64,000 bases of DNA, taken from Candidatus Peribacteria bacterium RIFCSPHIGHO2_01_FULL_51_35 (GTDB lineage: Bacteria > Patescibacteriota > Gracilibacteria > Peribacterales > Peribacteraceae). This document shows positions 15,546 to 62,742 of the stretch, piece by piece. A program made the position numbers and the translations under genes. The stretch covers positions 56,339 through 120,338 of the forward strand of contig MFXP01000006.1 of NCBI GenBank assembly GCA_001787535.1. The letters are read 5' to 3'. Position 1 is the stretch's first letter. Each line of letters opens with the position of its first letter. The notes below the pieces were generated by a model. That model worked only from the letters and a program-made list of their open reading frames with translations, made no database searches and was not told where the DNA came from.

Positions 15546-15596
15546 AATGACCAATGACCTGCCTGCCGGTAGGCAGGCGCAATGACCAATGACCAA
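15546..15596. repeat. AATGACC-family repeat arm (left flank of four-helix-bundle cassette)
   Basis: aatgaccaatgacc[tgcctgccggtaggcaggcg]caatgaccaatgaccaa is the reverse complement of the 16120-16149 core. Confidence 0.8.
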
Positions 15597-15610: not shown

Positions 15611-15997
15611 TTATTTCTTAGCAAGATGCTCGAAGCCGGTTCTGCGCACGATAGCATTAAAGATGAGGACAAATTCATTGGCTTCTTTCCAAAGTTCTCG
15701 GCATCTGATCTTGAGAGACTCCGAAAGTCCATCGGAAAGAAGTTCCAGCCAATGACACGATTCTTTAGATTCCTTTCTGCAAATTTTTATGATGTTTGCA
15801 AAATCCCTTCGGCTTACTGCTTCATCTGCTTCTCTATAGTTGGCACCAACGGAACCAGAAGAACGAAGCAACTGTTTTATATCATCAGCATTGATAATGC
15901 TGATTGGAATTGATCGGGCAAAAGCGCGAACGTTTTTCCCAAACAGAGTTGTTCGTTTCTTTAAATCGAAAGTTTTCTTCGAAGGGAGTTCTTGCAT
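15611..15997 (-). CDS. four-helix-bundle protein (23S rRNA intervening-sequence protein family)
   Basis: QLLRSSGSVGANYREADEAVSRRDFANIIKICRKESKESCHWLELL matches the family signature (LLRS.tSIGANy.EA...S..DF..K..I..KE..E..yWL.LL). Confidence 0.85.
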   Translation of the reverse strand: MQELPSKKTFDLKKRTTLFGKNVRAFARSIPISIINADDIKQLLRSSGSVGANYREADEAVSRRDFANIIKICRKESKESCHWLELLSDGLSESLKIRCRELWKEANEFVLIFNAIVRRTGFEHLAKK

Positions 15998-16119: not shown

Positions 16120-16149
16120 TTGGTCATTGGTCTATGGTCATTGGTCATT
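16120..16149. repeat. GGTCATT-family 30-nt core (right flank of cassette)
   Basis: TTGGTCATTGGTCTATGGTCATTGGTCATT is identical to 62713-62742. Confidence 0.9.
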
Positions 16150-17050: not shown

Positions 17051-18037
17051 TCATCGACAGATGACTGCCTTCACATCATCAATGCGCTCTGCGAGCACCA
17101 GTTTTGCACGCATTTCTTTCGCACCATCCACTCCCTTTACGTAGCTCGCCAAGTGTCTGCGCATTTCCAGCATTCCCCTCTTTTCGCCTTTCGTTCGCAC
17201 GGCAAGTTCGCAATGTTCCAGAATCCAGGGGATTTTTTCTTCGAAAGTTGTTGGTGTAGAGATCGACCGCTGGTCGATCTCACGTTGGTCATTGGTCATT
17301 GGTCTATGGTCATTTCTCAAGGCCTCAACAATCTCCCCCATCACCCAAGGGTTTCCAAATGTCCCCCGCCCCACCATCACGCCATCCAAATTGCCGATTT
17401 TTGCGACGGCGTCGGCTGCAGACATGATGTCGCCATTGCCGATGACGGGCACGGAGACTTCTCGCTTGAGTTCGTAGATGGGATCCCAATTCGCCGCGCC
17501 GCTGAATTTATCATGGTAACGGCGGCCGTGGATTGCGAGAGCCTGAGCGCCCGCTTCCACCAGACCTTTGCAGAAAGGAATCAGCGTATCGATGCATTCC
17601 CATCCGAGACGCGTCTTCACGCTCACGGGAATCTTCACAGCCTTCACCGTTGCATGGACGAGCTCTGCCGCAAGTTTCGGATTGCGGATCAACGCCGAGC
17701 CATGACAAGAGGAAACGACCTTTGCTGCGGGACAACCCATGTTGATGTCGATGCCGTCCGCCCCAAGTTGCTCGATCACCTTCGCAGCACTGAGGAAATG
17801 CTCCGGATCTTTGCCAAACACCTGCACGATGAACGGTCGCTCCAACGTGGGATCGAAATTGAGCAATTCCATCGTCTTCTTCGCGCCGTAGTGGATGGCA
17901 TCGGTGCTCAGAAACTCCGTGTACACGATCACTTCGGGTGCGATCCTTTTGATGAGTTGTCGGTACGACGCATCCGTCACGCCCGCCATAGGGGCAAGTG
18001 CGACAATGGGCCGGGGGGTGGTCTGCCAGGAGAACAT
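17051..18037 (-). CDS. dusB: tRNA-dihydrouridine synthase (Dus family)
   Basis: LAPMAGVTDASYR, IDINMGCPAAKV, VSVKTRLGW and VMVGRG motifs. The C-terminal region contains the repeat-derived segment NDHRPMTNDQREIDQRSIST. Confidence 0.92.
   Translation of the reverse strand: MFSWQTTPRPIVALAPMAGVTDASYRQLIKRIAPEVIVYTEFLSTDAIHYGAKKTMELLNFDPTLERPFIVQVFGKDPEHFLSAAKVIEQLGADGIDINMGCPAAKVVSSCHGSALIRNPKLAAELVHATVKAVKIPVSVKTRLGWECIDTLIPFCKGLVEAGAQALAIHGRRYHDKFSGAANWDPIYELKREVSVPVIGNGDIMSAADAVAKIGNLDGVMVGRGTFGNPWVMGEIVEALRNDHRPMTNDQREIDQRSISTPTTFEEKIPWILEHCELAVRTKGEKRGMLEMRRHLASYVKGVDGAKEMRAKLVLAERIDDVKAVICR
17255..17314. repeat. 60-nt composite palindromic element inside the dusB coding sequence (in frame)
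   Basis: gtagagatcgaccgctggtcgatctcac (GTAGAGA hairpin family) plus ttggtcattggtcattggtctatggtcatt (GGTCATT family). 60 nt equals 20 codons. Confidence 0.8.
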
Positions 18038-48930: not shown

Positions 48931-49893
48931 TTATCGCAATCCCACAGCTTTCCGCACTTTCTCCATGGTTTTCTGGGCTTCTTTGGATGCCCTTTTCGCT
49001 CCATCGGCCAGAATCTCCGAGACACCTGCCAAATCCTGTTTCAGAGCGGCACGCTTCTCGCGCATCGGGGTAAACACGTCCATGTACGTTGCAAAAAGCT
49101 TCTTCTTCGCATCGCCGTATGCGAGCCCATTGCGATACTCCTCAGCTAATGCTTTTGCTTCGGATTCATTGAGGAAAAGCGCATGGATTTGGTAGATGAT
49201 GCACGCCTTTGGATCTTTGGGATCGTTCGCCCCTTTGGAATCCGTTTTGATGCCCATGATCGCTTTTTTGATGGCGCTCTCTTCCCCAAAAATAGGGATG
49301 ATATTGCCGTAGCTCTTGCTCATTTTCTGCCCATCGGTGCCGGGGACCACCGCAACATCCGCTCTGATCTGCGGTTCCGGAAGGACAAACGTCTTCCCGA
49401 ACGCGTGATTGAATTTTCCTCCGATATCGCGTGCGATTTCTACGTGCTGTTTCTGATCCTTTCCAACAGGTACGACATCCGCTTGATACAAAAGGATATC
49501 GGCAGCCATCAGTACGGGATACGTAAAGAGGCCAACGGTGGCGGAAACGCCCTTCTCTACTTTTTCCTTGTAGCTCACCGCACGCTCTAAAAGCCCCATA
49601 GGGGAAACCGTGGAGAGGATCCAAAGAAGTTCAGTGTGTTCAGAAACAGCGGATTGATACCAGAGAACAGTTTTTAGAGGATCCAGTCCGCATGCGAGGA
49701 TGTCCAACACCGCATCTTCCCGATACGTTTTCAACAATTTCGGATCGTGCAGAGTCGTGAGCGCATGCAGATCGACGACAAAGTAAAAGCTTTGATCCGC
49801 CTTTGCCGCCATCTCTACATTCGGTTTGATGGATCCGAAATAATTGCCCAGATGCAGTTGGCCCGAAGGTTGGATTCCGGAGAGGACTCTCAT
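48931..49893 (-). CDS. trpS: tryptophan--tRNA ligase
   Basis: Start reassigned to MRVLSGIQPSGQLHLGNYFG (HIGH-type motif). KMSKS present (GQKMSKSYGN). The ORF-track N-terminus reads through the repeat/IS end. Confidence 0.93.
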   Translation of the reverse strand: MRVLSGIQPSGQLHLGNYFGSIKPNVEMAAKADQSFYFVVDLHALTTLHDPKLLKTYREDAVLDILACGLDPLKTVLWYQSAVSEHTELLWILSTVSPMGLLERAVSYKEKVEKGVSATVGLFTYPVLMAADILLYQADVVPVGKDQKQHVEIARDIGGKFNHAFGKTFVLPEPQIRADVAVVPGTDGQKMSKSYGNIIPIFGEESAIKKAIMGIKTDSKGANDPKDPKACIIYQIHALFLNESEAKALAEEYRNGLAYGDAKKKLFATYMDVFTPMREKRAALKQDLAGVSEILADGAKRASKEAQKTMEKVRKAVGLR

Positions 49894-49940
49894 GATTTGG
49901 AGTATATATTGATCAGTGGGCAAAACCCAATGATCTGAAT

Positions 49941-49969
49941 AATGACCAATGACCATAGACCAATCAGAA
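49941..49969. repeat. AATGACC-family repeat arm, left flank of the IS200-like element
   Basis: aatgaccaatgaccatagaccaatcagaa is approximately the reverse complement of 50634-50676. Confidence 0.8.
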
Positions 49970-50633
49970 CTACCGGCAGAGCCGGTAGTATGAGGAAAGC
50001 CCCTGGAAGGGGCTAAGTAGGAATGCATACTACCGATGGCTCTGCTTCTTAATTCCAGTACAGATCAAGTTGTGGACCGTCGAAGAATTGATCGTTCTTC
50101 CATTGGTCTTGGATGTATTTGCGGATGGCATCGGGATCTTGACCGACGGTGCTCACGAAGTATCCGCGAGACCAGAAGGATTTTTGGGGACCTCCTTGCT
50201 TGCGCTTGGAACACTGCTGATGGATGCGGATAGCGCTTTTCCCTTTGAGGAATCCCATGACATGGGCGACGCTGTATTTGGGCGGGATGGAGAGGAGGAG
50301 ATGAATGTGGTCGGGGCAGGCATTTCCTTCGAGCACTTCGGTTTCCTTCTGCTTGCTAAGCTCTCGAATGATTTTGCCAACCTGGACACGCACAGCTCCG
50401 TACAGGATTTTTTTGCGGTACTTTGGTACAATCACGATGTGGTACTTACAGTTCCATATCGTGTGGCTCTGTGATTAGAAAGAACACATGTGTTGAGACA
50501 GGGAATGCTCCTTCGCTGGGACTTTCCCTGTACCAAAGTACCGTATGCCAATGCCGGGACGGTGGAACCTGGCGGCGTCTCACCGGCGGAGCCGGTGGTT
50601 TCCAAATAGGGAATGACCAAGATGGTTTGGCTA
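49970..50633 (-). mobile_element. IS200/IS605-family insertion sequence (about 660 bp, boundaries approximate)
   Basis: A single Y1-transposase gene with similar subterminal hairpins in direct orientation: ctaccggcagagccggtag (49970-49988) and caccggcggagccggtgg (50581-50598). Confidence 0.75.
50049..50435 (-). CDS. tnpA: IS200-type Y1 (HUH) transposase TnpA, apparently lacking a canonical start
   Basis: PKYRKKILYG, PDHIHLLLSIPPKYSVAHVMGFLKGKSA (HUH) and FWSRGYFVSTVG (catalytic Tyr). The frame stays open upstream (SQSHTIWNCKYHIV) to a TAA at 50475-50477, with no ATG and only the GTG at 50435. Confidence 0.85.
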   Translation of the reverse strand: MIVPKYRKKILYGAVRVQVGKIIRELSKQKETEVLEGNACPDHIHLLLSIPPKYSVAHVMGFLKGKSAIRIHQQCSKRKQGGPQKSFWSRGYFVSTVGQDPDAIRKYIQDQWKNDQFFDGPQLDLYWN

Positions 50634-50676
50634 TTCTGATTTTCGTTGGTCATTGGTCATTGTGTCATTGGTCATT
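50634..50676. repeat. GGTCATT-family repeat arm, right flank of the IS200-like element
   Basis: ttctgattttcgttggtcattggtcattgtgtcattggtcatt. Confidence 0.8.
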
Positions 50677-50689
50677 TCCCTGTCGGGAG

Positions 50690-51364
50690 TTATTTTTCCA
50701 GTTTCTTCAGCACTTCTTGAAATATCCTTGGGAGCGGCGCTTCTATCTTCACTTCCTGTTTCGTAAAAGGATGCAGGAAGGACAGACGTGATGCATGCAA
50801 AAAGAATTTACGGTATTTATATGCTTTGGTGAACGCCACATTGGCCTTCGCATTGCCATACAGAGGATCCAAGATCAACGGACAACGCACACTCTGAAAA
50901 TGCTTGCGGATCTGGTGATGCCGGCCGCTCGTGAATTCCGCTTCCACAAAAGTGACGGTATCGAAACGTTCCAACACGCGATACTTCGTCTCCGCAGGAA
51001 TCAGTTCTTTGGATGCGCGCGCAGGGAGTGGCGTGCGAATGGTCCCCTGCGAGAGCGGCGGCGCACCCGACACCAGCGCACAGTAGGTTTTCCGCACGTG
51101 CAGATCCTCTTCGGATCCTCCGGGCATCATGGCCGCAAGCGCGGCTTTGGTGCGCGCAAAAAGCACAACACCCGATGTCTCGAAATCAAGACGGTTCACG
51201 GGACGGAGTCCCGGAAAATCCTTCTTCAAAAAATCCAGCAGCGGTAGTTTCCCCACGGGACCTTTCCCCCGCACAACCAGTTCGCCGCTCAATTTATGAA
51301 CAGCAAGGAAGTGCTCGTCTTGGTAGAGGATTCTATCGGCGGATATTCGTGCGGATTGGCTCAT
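50690..51364 (-). CDS. RluA-family pseudouridine synthase
   Basis: ILYQDEHFLAVHKLSGELV, PVNRLDFETSGVVLFA (catalytic Asp motif) and HQIRKHF. Start ambiguous (51364, 51376, 51379 or 51397). Confidence 0.85.
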   Translation of the reverse strand: MSQSARISADRILYQDEHFLAVHKLSGELVVRGKGPVGKLPLLDFLKKDFPGLRPVNRLDFETSGVVLFARTKAALAAMMPGGSEEDLHVRKTYCALVSGAPPLSQGTIRTPLPARASKELIPAETKYRVLERFDTVTFVEAEFTSGRHHQIRKHFQSVRCPLILDPLYGNAKANVAFTKAYKYRKFFLHASRLSFLHPFTKQEVKIEAPLPRIFQEVLKKLEK

Positions 51365-62097: not shown

Positions 62098-62673
62098 ATG
62101 CATCCTCGCGAAGAAAAATCTCAAGTCCGGCTGAGTATAAAACAGCGCCTGGAAGCCTATCCGGAACGGCAGCGCCATGCGGAAAGCAGGACAGTCTGTA
62201 GAGAGATACACAAGATTATCCCCAATGATCCTGCGCTCAGCATCGCAGCCTATTATCCGCTAAAAGATGAAGTGGATCTGCGACCATTGTTCGAAGAACT
62301 CTTAAAACGAGGCGTGAAAATCTATCTCCCCTGTTTCGAAGACAAGCATTTTTTCTTCCGCCTGATGGACAGTACGGAAAATTTAAGACCTGGCGAATTC
62401 AAGATTCCGGAGCCAACCAAAGATGCTCCTATCTTGGATCCCGCAACATTGGATATTGCACTGATTCCCGGACGAGCCTTCACGCACGAAGGCTATCGCC
62501 TGGGGCGTGGCAACGGCGGTTATGACCTGTGGATTACGGAGCAACGAAAAAAGAACCCAAAGACGAAAATCTACGGCGTGGCACTGGAATGCCAGATACT
62601 CACGGAGATACCCATGGAACCGCACGATGAAAAAGTGGACGGGGTGATCACGGCACGAGGACTTATAAAATGA
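62098..62673 (+). CDS. 5-formyltetrahydrofolate cyclo-ligase
   Basis: AAYYPLKDEVDLRPL, YLPCF, FKIPEP and IPGRAFTHEGYRLGRGNGGYD motifs. Confidence 0.88.
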   Translation: MHPREEKSQVRLSIKQRLEAYPERQRHAESRTVCREIHKIIPNDPALSIAAYYPLKDEVDLRPLFEELLKRGVKIYLPCFEDKHFFFRLMDSTENLRPGEFKIPEPTKDAPILDPATLDIALIPGRAFTHEGYRLGRGNGGYDLWITEQRKKNPKTKIYGVALECQILTEIPMEPHDEKVDGVITARGLIK

Positions 62674-62742
62674 CCAATGACACAATGACCAATGACCATA
62701 TTGATTTCTTTCTTGGTCATTGGTCTATGGTCATTGGTCATT
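62668..62742. repeat. GGTCATT-family complete hairpin (both arms)
   Basis: aatgaccaatgacacaatgaccaatgaccata - 12 nt - TTGGTCATTGGTCTATGGTCATTGGTCATT. The left arm contains the stop codon of the upstream gene. Confidence 0.9.

Follow-up and report, generated by a model that had tools for sequence, protein, structure and literature searches.

An insertion sequence between rluA and trpS

The DNA analysed here, a 64-kb stretch to which we refer as the window, comes from a genome of the Peribacteria (Peregrinibacteria), from groundwater or sediment, within the candidate phyla radiation. Between its rluA and trpS genes lies an insertion sequence (IS) of the IS200 group, 650 bp long and oriented on the minus strand (49963–50612), with parts of a GGTCATT-type hairpin repeat on either side. 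In order to set its boundaries we used relatives that occur at more than one junction (the P0004 element, L016/L017, L095–L097 and L103/L104), whose left boundary is 13–15 nt away from the hairpin foot on the 5' side and whose right boundary is 7 nt away on the 3' side. Applied to the window, this spacing gives 49963–50612, and excision of precisely this interval restores the host arm exactly (see below); owing to an ambiguity of a single T at the boundaries, 49962–50611 is equally possible. The element has neither terminal inverted repeats nor a target duplication. The first-pass annotation was thus right in seeing an IS-like unit at this position, whilst the extent that it gave (approximately 49970–50633) has to be replaced by ends at 49963 and 50612.

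Each end of the element carries a subterminal hairpin. The right end (49963–49988, minus strand) consists of the hairpin CTACCGGC-TCT-GCCGGTAG (49970–49988; DNA fold of −10.3 kcal/mol, z = −8.8), followed by TTCTGAT (49969–49963); right ends of the relatives read GCCGGTAG-TCATGAC, and the string 'tcagaa' is the final part of this IS end, not host DNA. At the left end (50581–50612, minus strand), 15 nt (TCCCTATTTGGAAAC, 50612–50598) precede the hairpin CACCGGC-TCC-GCCGGTG (50597–50581; −8.2 kcal/mol, z = −3.0), which is kept in nine of nine relatives, two of them with a compensated change from G:C to A:T. Both hairpins are of the type CACCGGC-N3-GCCGGTG and form direct repeats with 89 % likeness. 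The similarity noticed previously between them is real, and their cores, ACCGGCAGAGCCGGT (49972–49986) and ACCGGCGGAGCCGGT (50582–50596), are the sole sites of this kind in the 64 kb, where 0.12 are expected. A second conserved hairpin, AGCCCCT-TCC-AGGGGCT (49998–50014, minus strand), lies downstream of the tnpA stop codon, ahead of the right-end hairpin, and it recurs as GCCCCTTC.AGGGGC in relatives L004, L094, L095, L102 and L103.

The transposase gene and its relatives

The only gene of the element, tnpA, spans 146 codons on the minus strand (50049–50489), from an ATG at 50489–50487 to a stop codon at 50051–50049. Upstream of it is an AAGGAG Shine–Dalgarno sequence (50508–50513, minus strand), enclosed within a local hairpin (ACAGGGA...TCCCTGT) that is present in relatives too. 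A 15-nt perfect complement between the 5' UTR (50529–50543) and the codons for VPKYR (50416–50430) was considered as a conserved regulatory stem and rejected: it is specific to the window copy and not conserved in eight relatives, which share just the local hairpin around the Shine–Dalgarno sequence.

The reading frame is interrupted by a premature TAA at codon 5 (50477–50475), such that the N-terminus reads MCSF-stop-SQSH in the window versus MRSF(Q/E/K/T)SQSH in the relatives, the relative with 83 % identity having GAA at this codon. The first-pass annotation had described the frame as lacking an ATG and directly following a TAA, which is incorrect as to the ATG; the suspicion that the gene may be decaying nevertheless holds, for the nonsense codon rather than for a missing start. 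The TAA is present in eight contigs and shows no variant in eight metagenome runs. The remainder of the ORF is intact, with one residue differing between strains, and a GTG at 50435 yields a 128-aa ORF, the one reported by gene callers. We infer that the IS no longer produces full-length transposase and is immobile. Some residual function is conceivable, through read-through of the stop, initiation at the GTG or a role other than transposition.

The encoded protein is a Y1 transposase, as had been proposed from its HUH and catalytic tyrosine motifs: it matches Pfam Y1_Tnp (PF01797) with an E-value of 1.2 × 10−38, its HUH motif is PDHIHLL, and the tyrosine in RKYIQDQ aligns with Y127 of IS608. 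The first-pass annotation had gone further and suggested a REPtron-like arrangement in which this TnpA mobilises the GGTCATT family. In that reading, the Y1 enzyme would be domesticated and single-copy, and the inverted repeats on either side of its gene would be copies of those that it spreads in trans through the genome, and superficially the locus, a Y1 gene between inverted GGTCATT arrays, has such an appearance. The clade of the protein argues against it. TnpA scores 142 bits with the IS200/IS605 equivalog NF033573 (cutoff 55) and only 37.3 bits with NF047646 (REP_Tyr_transpos), below the cutoff of 80. Its best solved structures are all IS200/IS605 TnpAs, namely 2EC2, 2A6M (IS608), 2F4F and 2XM3 (ISDra2), and no REP-associated (RAYT) structure occurs among its PDB sequence matches at E ≤ 0.01.

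Copy number was assessed by read depth, which is the same over the IS body as over its flanks (e.g. 22 versus 21 in run X1), making the element single-copy; the sequence analysed covers 64 kb of this genome, and a second Y1 gene may lie elsewhere in it. All contigs and runs that we examined carry the IS with the identical TAA, and all contigs have it at one and the same locus. Although a single-copy gene at the same locus in all samples may be listed in favour of a REPtron, and would equally fit a domesticated gene, this observation does not discriminate between the readings, because a dead, fixed IS looks alike. The fixed nonsense codon itself counts against a REPtron.

Relatives of the IS in other Peribacteria, at 64–83 % identity, have differing junctions on differing contigs and share the end architecture of the window element. 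Several of them occur at more than one flank (those used above to set the boundaries), whereas the window copy is single and has the stop at codon 5. None of these relatives has GGTCATT flanks; they occupy unrelated sites. The unit owns its left and right ends, and the same architecture is found in multi-junction relatives at unrelated sites, which further counts against a REPtron.

The GGTCATT repeat family and the insertion point

GGTCATT occurs 32 times in the window versus 10.3 expected, a number reached in none of 100 shuffles, and a 12-mer of the family occurs 22 times versus 5.7 expected. Four heptamers in a row make up the repeat unit, which is not palindromic. On its own, such an arm is unfolded (0 kcal/mol), has no GTAG or CGTC tag and bears no likeness to the CACCGGC hairpin of the IS, all of which speaks against the REPtron reading. 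We counted five array loci in the window, where at least six had been claimed: two inverted pairs (the IS locus and 62669–62742), two solo arms and one direct pair. The palindrome at 62669–62742 is uninterrupted and has the same arms as the IS locus around a different, 14-nt loop (−25.2 kcal/mol, z = −8.2). One solo arm, TTGGTCATTGGTCTATGGTCATTGGTCATT (16120–16149, plus strand), lies upstream of the ribosomal protein L1 gene, and the other (17285–17314, plus strand) lies within dus (17051–18037, minus strand), where it is read in frame as NDHRPMTNDQ in an inter-domain linker. The direct pair, two short arrays that face the same way with a G+C hairpin between them (15546–15594, minus strand), lies between convergent ORFs.

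Beyond the window, at least eight paralogous palindromes were found in the same metagenomes, their loops all different and 7–40 nt long. Read depth over the GGTCATT arm was 45–65 times higher than over the IS, corresponding to tens of copies per genome. This abundance, together with the presence in every heptamer of TCAT, the cleavage or target tetranucleotide of the IS, can be read in favour of a REPtron. Against that, other array hairpin families with unrelated units coexist, several of them in the window and in a related genome, which points to a host-wide process rather than to one enzyme acting on one substrate. The units appear to be lineage-specific; besides TGGTCAT here, they include AAGCTAA in marine and Rifle relatives and several more. 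A search of Rfam on both strands gave nothing significant (the best match, STnc490, reached 21 bits against a gathering score of 56), and our literature search found no earlier description of long hairpins with short-tandem-array arms in Peribacteria. A likeness presumably exists to the short tandemly repeated repetitive (STRR) heptamers of cyanobacteria, dispersed arrays of 7-nt units, one of which is probably TTGGTCA, the same unit as in the window; a literature search for STRR heptamer sequences found no paper giving them. Unlike in STRR, the host is a member of the Peribacteria rather than a cyanobacterium, and the arrays are short (about four units) and often paired as hairpins. A small genome studded with tandem-array hairpins of several families, including an in-frame copy in dus, is possibly worth more than the IS itself.

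At the IS locus, the strings said to bracket the element were located at 49941–49969 and 50634–50676, with a perfect 15-nt inverted match (49941–49955 with 50647–50661). Their parts could be assigned as follows. The 22 nt at 49941–49962 (TGGTCTATGGTCATTGGTCATT on the minus strand) abut the right end of the IS and form the outer part of a split arm, which is completed to 30 nt by its inner, loop-proximal heptamer at 50613–50620 (TTGGTCAT on the minus strand), whose TCAT is the integration target. Thereafter come the true loop of the host palindrome, 25 nt in the reconstituted 86-nt fold (50621–50645), and the other arm, which is intact (50646–50676, plus strand; TTGGTCATTGGTCATTGTGTCATTGGTCATT); its reverse complement matches the left palindrome arm at 62669–62698 almost exactly, the difference being one additional base. 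The interval 50613–50645 ('ATGACCAA' plus the 25-nt loop) is host DNA, and hence the insertion lies in the arm, 8 nt from the loop.

Excising 49963–50612 gives back the 30-nt arm TTGGTCAT/TGGTCTATGGTCATTGGTCATT (the slash marking the joint), identical to 16120–16149 and 62713–62742, with no duplicated bases. It also rebuilds the 86-nt hairpin with a fold of −25.4 kcal/mol (z = −8.3), versus −25.2 kcal/mol for the intact paralogue at 62669–62742. It had been claimed that the two flanks together form one GGTCATT hairpin, and this is confirmed; of the proposal that the IS inserted into the loop of a pre-existing hairpin, the pre-existing hairpin is upheld by the exact restoration of the arm, whilst the position has to be moved from the loop to the loop-proximal heptamer of the arm. 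The flanks are accordingly one split arm and the remainder of one palindrome, not two REPs. Taken together with the protein clade, the element's own ends and the fixed nonsense codon, this makes it very unlikely that TnpA is a REPtron enzyme mobilising the GGTCATT family.

An alternative is that the inverted arms were made by the IS itself, by duplication or rearrangement on insertion, and were not a pre-existing repeat. Beyond the symmetry of the flanks nothing speaks for this, and identical arms occur without an IS at the four other loci of the window, as well as in at least eight further palindromes of the same metagenomes, whose loops differ. Moreover, IS200/IS605 elements create no target duplication (PMC3201880). 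We regard this origin of the arms as exceedingly improbable.

The predicted empty site reads TTGGTCAT/TGGTCTATGG; the loop would have ...ACCAAGATGGTTTGGCTATTCTGATTTTCG to one side, and the minus strand would read TTGGTCAT/TGGTCTATGGTCATTGGTCATT. The corresponding joint, 49962 to 50613, was absent in eight metagenome runs (80–95 % likeness), and no IS-free contig was found among all those carrying the neighbouring rluA. Joints of 49964 to 50646/7 were considered as IS excisions and rejected, as they are other palindromes of the GGTCATT family, and a joint of 49895 to 50897 in runs X7 and X8 is a contig of a diverged relative. Since no contig or run yielded an empty-site allele, the sequence of events (first the palindrome, then the IS) is deduced from exact restoration of the arm and not from a polymorphism. 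In a relative with 68 % RluA identity, rluA and trpS overlap by 11 nt and there is neither palindrome nor IS, which we take to be the ancestral state.

Interpretation and comparison with known systems

We conclude with considerable confidence that the locus holds a defunct IS200-group IS (IS200/IS605 family, tnpA only) lodged in a pre-existing host hairpin repeat, of which it is a passenger, not the spreader. Going by the established mechanism of the family, the element would have arrived by single-strand 'peel and paste' transposition, with the Y1 transposase bound to the subterminal hairpins and the target tetranucleotide paired with a few bases 5' of the left hairpin. The host palindrome belongs to a family of tandem-heptamer arms without resemblance to the IS ends, and the IS is merely lodged there, in the heptamer of an arm that is nearest to the loop, directly 3' of its TCAT. 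Two reasons for this site, which do not exclude each other, appear likely: the array supplies several TCAT sites in a harmless intergenic hairpin, and hairpin-forming DNA may be a preferred single-strand target.

The second of these reasons can be extended to targeted integration, in which this IS200 clade prefers the 3' arm of long array hairpins, with a guide base matched to the host unit. This would refine the reading of a dead passenger, not replace it, and we consider it possible, if rather doubtful. The proposed guide match is to TCAT in TGGTCAT here and to TAAT in AAGCTAAT in a marine relative. At three of approximately 12 distinct insertion places of this clade, the element touches or occupies the 3' arm of a long array hairpin. 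These are the window, P0004 place A (hairpin of 103 nt and −20.7 kcal/mol; left end directly after AAGCTAAT) and the L097 place (hairpin of −14.3 kcal/mol). At a fourth place the element directly follows a tRNA gene. These numbers are small, however, and most other insertion places have no such hairpin. In favour of targeting, just 24 of the 730 TCAT sites of the window lie in arrays, but outside long ORFs the figure is 12 of 86, and survival of harmless insertions alone could therefore account for one hit.

The tetranucleotide 5' of the left end is TCAT in the window and TAAT, TTAG or similar in relatives, those with two junctions sharing (C/T)TAAT or TTAG. At target position 2 the present element has C where P0004 and L016 have A, and at position −5 from the left hairpin foot it has G where those two have T, which favours a guide. 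We derived a left-end pairing of target position 2 with base −5 and of position 4 with base −2. Nevertheless, the covariation amounts to one compensated change with secure boundaries, and the pairing register is unlike that of IS608; the rule is a lead only, because the right ends of those elements depart from it. The ends of this clade are compact in their geometry (15 nt and 7 nt), possibly with guide–target covariation. It is improbable, although worth stating, that the clade has evolved to integrate into 3' arms of Peribacteria array hairpins, its guide base tracking the unit (G for TCAT, T for TAAT); if true, a transposon that moves as a single strand would find 'safe havens' in the arrays. 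A part for a Y1-type enzyme in spreading the arms is a still more remote possibility.

Amongst known systems, the passenger element resembles those of the IS200 group (IS200 of Salmonella, with IS608 and ISDra2 as models) in its size (∼650–700 bp), its single tnpA coding for a Y1 HUH enzyme, its subterminal hairpins in the same orientation at both ends without terminal inverted repeats, its insertion 3' of a tetranucleotide without target duplication, and its Shine–Dalgarno sequence enclosed by a 5'-UTR hairpin. It differs from IS608 in cleavage spacing, which is 15 nt (left foot) and 7 nt (right foot) here versus 19 and 10 nt in IS608 (PMC3201880). Its target is TCAT, as against TAAT or TTAG in its nearest relatives, and this copy is single, fixed and interrupted by a nonsense codon at position 5.

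REPtrons consist of a tnpA_REP (RAYT) gene flanked by REP/BIME sequences (Nunvar 2010, PMC2817692; Ton-Hoang 2012, PMC3333891), REPs being imperfect palindromes of 20–40 nt with a conserved GTAG or CGTC 5' of the foot (PMC3333891, PMC3733652). REPtrons lack IS ends and are not mobile as whole units, and their enzyme binds the dispersed repeat in single-stranded form and cleaves it. The window shares with them a Y1-family gene between inverted dispersed repeats, in single copy at a conserved locus. In contrast to REPtrons, its protein is not of the TnpA_REP clade, its brackets are two parts of one interrupted element, its arms are not imperfect palindromes with GTAG/CGTC, and it keeps IS ends and belongs to a clade that appears to move as a unit. 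Nor does the GGTCATT family as a whole fit REP, BIME or REPIN, in which short palindromes form inverted pairs with linkers of a few defined types or, in REPINs, with a conserved spacer, as its unit is not a short palindrome, its loops are variable, and solo arms and a direct pair occur. The lesson is that, before a Y1 gene between inverted repeats is called a REPtron, one should check the clade of the protein, whether the element owns its ends and whether the flanks simply restore one host element.

A parallel for the location is found in the REP-targeting ISs, such as IS1397/ISKpn1 (IS3 family) and IS621, ISPpu9, ISPpu10 and ISPa11 (IS110 family) (Tobes & Pareja, 2006, PMC1525189). The survey of ISs associated with REPs lists the families IS3, IS110, IS4, IS256 and IS5, and in S. 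Typhimurium LT2 only one of 25 IS200 copies is near a REP (PMC1525189). As in those cases, the element sits within a dispersed palindromic host repeat that is a target and not a product of the transposase. Unlike those DDE and DEDD families, it is a single-strand Y1 element, and the host repeat is a tandem-heptamer array hairpin rather than a classical REP. The locus thus adds one further IS200-group element, a dead one, in a candidate-phyla-radiation genome, sitting in a host repeat as other IS families do in REPs.

Boundaries of the element and the palindrome that it interrupts

In order to define the ends of the IS200-group element between rluA and trpS, relatives of its transposase (64–83 % identity) were taken together with their flanks. 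Several were joined to more than one flank, perhaps because the element is present more than once or because copies were merged during assembly. In a marine Peribacteraceae sequence (P0004) the 5′ flank [C]TAAT precedes the left end AATCCCCCAGTAAAC and the hairpin foot CACCAGC, and the right end reads GCCGGTAG-TCATGAC. The related sequences L016/L017 have the flank [T]TAAT, left end TAAAAAATCATAAAC and foot CACCGGC, with no right end tabulated, whilst L095–L097 combine the flank TTAG, left end TAACATCTAAACC and foot CACCGGC with the right end TCATGAC, which L103/L104 (right end only) share. Throughout this clade, 13–15 nt of left end precede the hairpin foot, and the right end runs on for 7 nt beyond the foot of its hairpin, on the 3′ side. 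Applied to the window, this spacing places the left end at 50612 (TCCCTATTTGGAAAC-CACCGGC) and the right end at 49963 (GCCGGTAG-TTCTGAT), an element of 650 bp in which one T can be assigned to either side.

Both strings reported by the first-pass annotation to bracket the element were recovered in place on reading both strands, and 49941–49955 and 50647–50661 form a perfect 15-nt inverted match. Its pair of like hairpins was likewise confirmed, as ACCGGCAGAGCCGGT (49972–49986) and ACCGGCGGAGCCGGT (50582–50596), direct repeats of 89 % identity that are the only matches to ACCGGC-N3-GCCGGT in 64 kb (0.12 expected). Its division between element and host needed revision: ‘tcagaa’, which had been assigned to the host, forms the tip of the right end, and 50613–50645, placed inside the element, is host DNA comprising one heptamer and a 25-nt loop. 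Removing the 650 bp joins TTGGTCAT to TGGTCTATGGTCATTGGTCATT, and this joint is identical at every letter to the 30-nt arm at 16120–16149 and 62713–62742, with no target duplication, as the IS200/IS605 family predicts. Folding energies are −25.4 kcal/mol (z = −8.3) for the restored 86-nt palindrome and −25.2 kcal/mol (z = −8.2) for the uninterrupted paralogue at 62669–62742; no fold forms in a single arm. The proposal that the element had inserted into a pre-existing hairpin is therefore upheld, with the site shifted out of the loop and 8 nt into the arm.

In the nearest sequenced relative (L181:914–2564, GCA_964619805.1; RluA identity 68 %) rluA shares 11 nt with trpS, and palindrome and IS are both absent, whilst in the window (49893–50690 compared) the two genes are spaced by 796 nt, all but ∼60 nt of which is palindrome and IS. 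The comparison agrees with a history in which the spacer would have gained the palindrome before the IS inserted into it. At the right end, 49983–49992 is complementary to 50026–50035: CGGTAGTATG, just 3′ of the tnpA stop, matches CATACTACCG, made up of the 5′ arm of the right-end hairpin and 4 further nt. An equivalent pairing in other letters (TGGTAGC.CTGG with CCAGGCTACC) lies downstream of tnpA in a marine relative (L004), and comparison of the two suggests a conserved alternative structure.

An inactivated, single-copy transposase gene

The minus-strand tnpA ORF matches Pfam Y1_Tnp across the full profile (E = 1.2 × 10−38), and its tyrosine in RKYIQDQ aligns with Y127 of IS608. The closest solved structures by sequence are all IS200/IS605 transposases (2EC2, IS608 2A6M, 2F4F and ISDra2 2XM3). 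The frame had been described as lacking an ATG; on the minus strand, however, AAGGAG-N18-ATG is followed by TGT TCT TTC TAA TCA CAG AGC, reading MCSF*SQSH, whereas the nearest database proteins start MRSF[Q/E/K/T]SQSH and an 83 % relative (L094) has GAA at codon 5. Thus, a single base change created a stop at codon 5. The ORF reported by gene callers (128 aa from GTG at 50435) omits the first β-strand residues, WNCKYHI. In addition, 50529–50543 in the 5′ UTR is perfectly complementary over 15 nt to 50416–50430 (codons V-P-K-Y-R), closing a stem around the Shine–Dalgarno sequence and start codon in the predicted mRNA fold. Eight relatives lack the complement, which thus originated in the present copy, possibly through an inverted duplication; as modelled, the stem would add to tnpA silencing.

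The locus was found in ENA and JGI metagenome contigs from groundwater and sediment, and named relatives of both RluA and the transposase belong to Candidatus Peribacteria/Peribacteraceae. All eight contigs spanning the site carry the IS with the TAA, differing by one or two substitutions at most in the IS body, and eight public runs that include the region contained no variant at the TAA and no joint skipping the IS. Assembler depth of the IS body equals that of flanking genes (e.g. 22 vs 21 in run X1), whilst in most runs arm depth at 50663 exceeds it 45–65-fold. The IS is thus fixed as a single copy, and the arm present in tens of copies. Several related IS200 elements occur in the same metagenomes on IS-length contigs, at depths up to ∼5 times that of this genome, and look like active, multi-copy elements of other community members. 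These contigs, of ∼480–1170 nt in runs X1–X9, match 49964–50015 and 50362–50491 at 80–90 % likeness.

Tandem-array hairpins and the choice of insertion site

GGTCATT occurs 32 times in the window (10.3 expected; reached in 0 of 100 shuffles) and the 12-mer TGGTCATTGGTC, at ≤ 2 mismatches, 22 times (5.7 expected). The five GGTCATT loci comprise two palindromes, two solo arms and a directly oriented pair flanking a G+C hairpin. In the runs, the arms recur in at least eight further palindromes, each at about genome depth, that have wholly different loops of 7–40 nt. One 30-nt solo arm (17285–17314) lies inside dus (dihydrouridine synthase, 17051–18037, minus strand), where the only open frame reads NDHRPMTNDQ in the inter-domain linker. 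Here, where the catalytic domain meets the C-terminal domain, the protein has a longer stretch than the T. maritima Dus structure 1VHN, as if one arm had been inserted in frame. The 5-formyltetrahydrofolate cyclo-ligase gene (62098–62673) ends on a TGA in the first AATGACC unit (62669–62673). With a 7-nt unit, three successive AATGACC repeats bring TGA into every reading frame, whereas arrays read as GGTCATT are free of stops, so that translation entering a palindrome from either direction would be terminated. Between two GGTCATT loci, a small minus-strand ORF (15611–15997) matches the 23S rRNA-intervening-sequence protein family (PF05635, 38.5 bits).

GGTCATT is one family among several, long hairpins with arms of short tandem arrays of 7–9-nt units studding the genome (18044–18149, 46104–46185, 53682–53771, 34664–34743, 27522–27632, 60425–60517 and 26495–26568 in the window; L182:1403–1481, L182:13907–13983 and L004:1781–1883 in related sequences). 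Inverted-pair arrays of the ATTGTTAT type occupy three loci in the window, and GGTAGGTCA, AAGGACACG and other units one each; an AAGCTAA-type family of their own is found in the marine relative and in a Peribacteria contig from Rifle. The paper on complete Peribacteria genomes makes no mention of such hairpins (PMC4736985), and we found nothing linking them to IS200 hairpins.

The target TCAT occurs at 730 sites on both strands of the window, 24 within arrays; outside long ORFs, 12 of 86 sites are in arrays, and one array hit could be explained by survival of harmless insertions. Three of about 12 distinct insertion places of the clade fall within or next to the 3′ arm of a long tandem-array hairpin: that in the window, place A of P0004, directly after AAGCTAAT of a 103-nt hairpin (−20.7 kcal/mol), and that in L097 (−14.3 kcal/mol). 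A fourth lies directly 3′ of a tRNA gene. The target is TCAT here versus TAAT in the nearest relatives, one position apart, and 5 nt upstream of the foot of the left hairpin the base is G versus T, a change complementary to that in the target. In IS608, bases 5′ of the foot pair with the target, and altering them re-programmes it (PMC3201880). A real preference for tandem-array hairpins, with a guide matched to TCAT, is a doubtful proposition that we keep as leads, not findings: for relatives in single copy the boundaries were placed by inference, and the guide rule, checked at right ends, does not hold there.

Relationship to REPtrons and other palindrome-borne elements

The first-pass annotation had also proposed a REPtron-like unit mobilizing the GGTCATT family. 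REPtrons, by the criteria of Ton-Hoang et al. (PMC3333891), encode a TnpA_REP-clade protein, are bordered by REPs that are imperfect palindromes with a GTAG tag, are single-copy at a fixed locus and do not transpose as a unit. Here, the protein scores 37 bits against the REP-associated tyrosine transposase model (cutoff 80), and 142 bits against the NCBIfam equivalog ‘IS200/IS605 family transposase’ (cutoff 55). Neither bordering repeat is by itself an imperfect palindrome carrying a GTAG tag. The single, fixed copy does agree, but a dead fixed IS looks alike, and the element has its own ends, in an architecture common to relatives with multiple junctions. GGTCATT was found beside none of the IS relatives, which are copies in other genomes, this genome having only one; such copies had been named in advance as what would refute the proposal. 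With protein clade, flanks and ends all against it, the REPtron reading is not supported, and insertion at the corrected coordinates is.

The element is a new, inactivated member of the IS200 group, and the tandem-array hairpins, together with possible hairpin-arm targeting, deserve a second look. Insertion sequences lodged in dispersed host palindromes are known for IS3, IS110, IS4, IS256 and IS5 elements (PMC1525189); the present case differs in involving a single-strand Y1 element and another kind of repeat.
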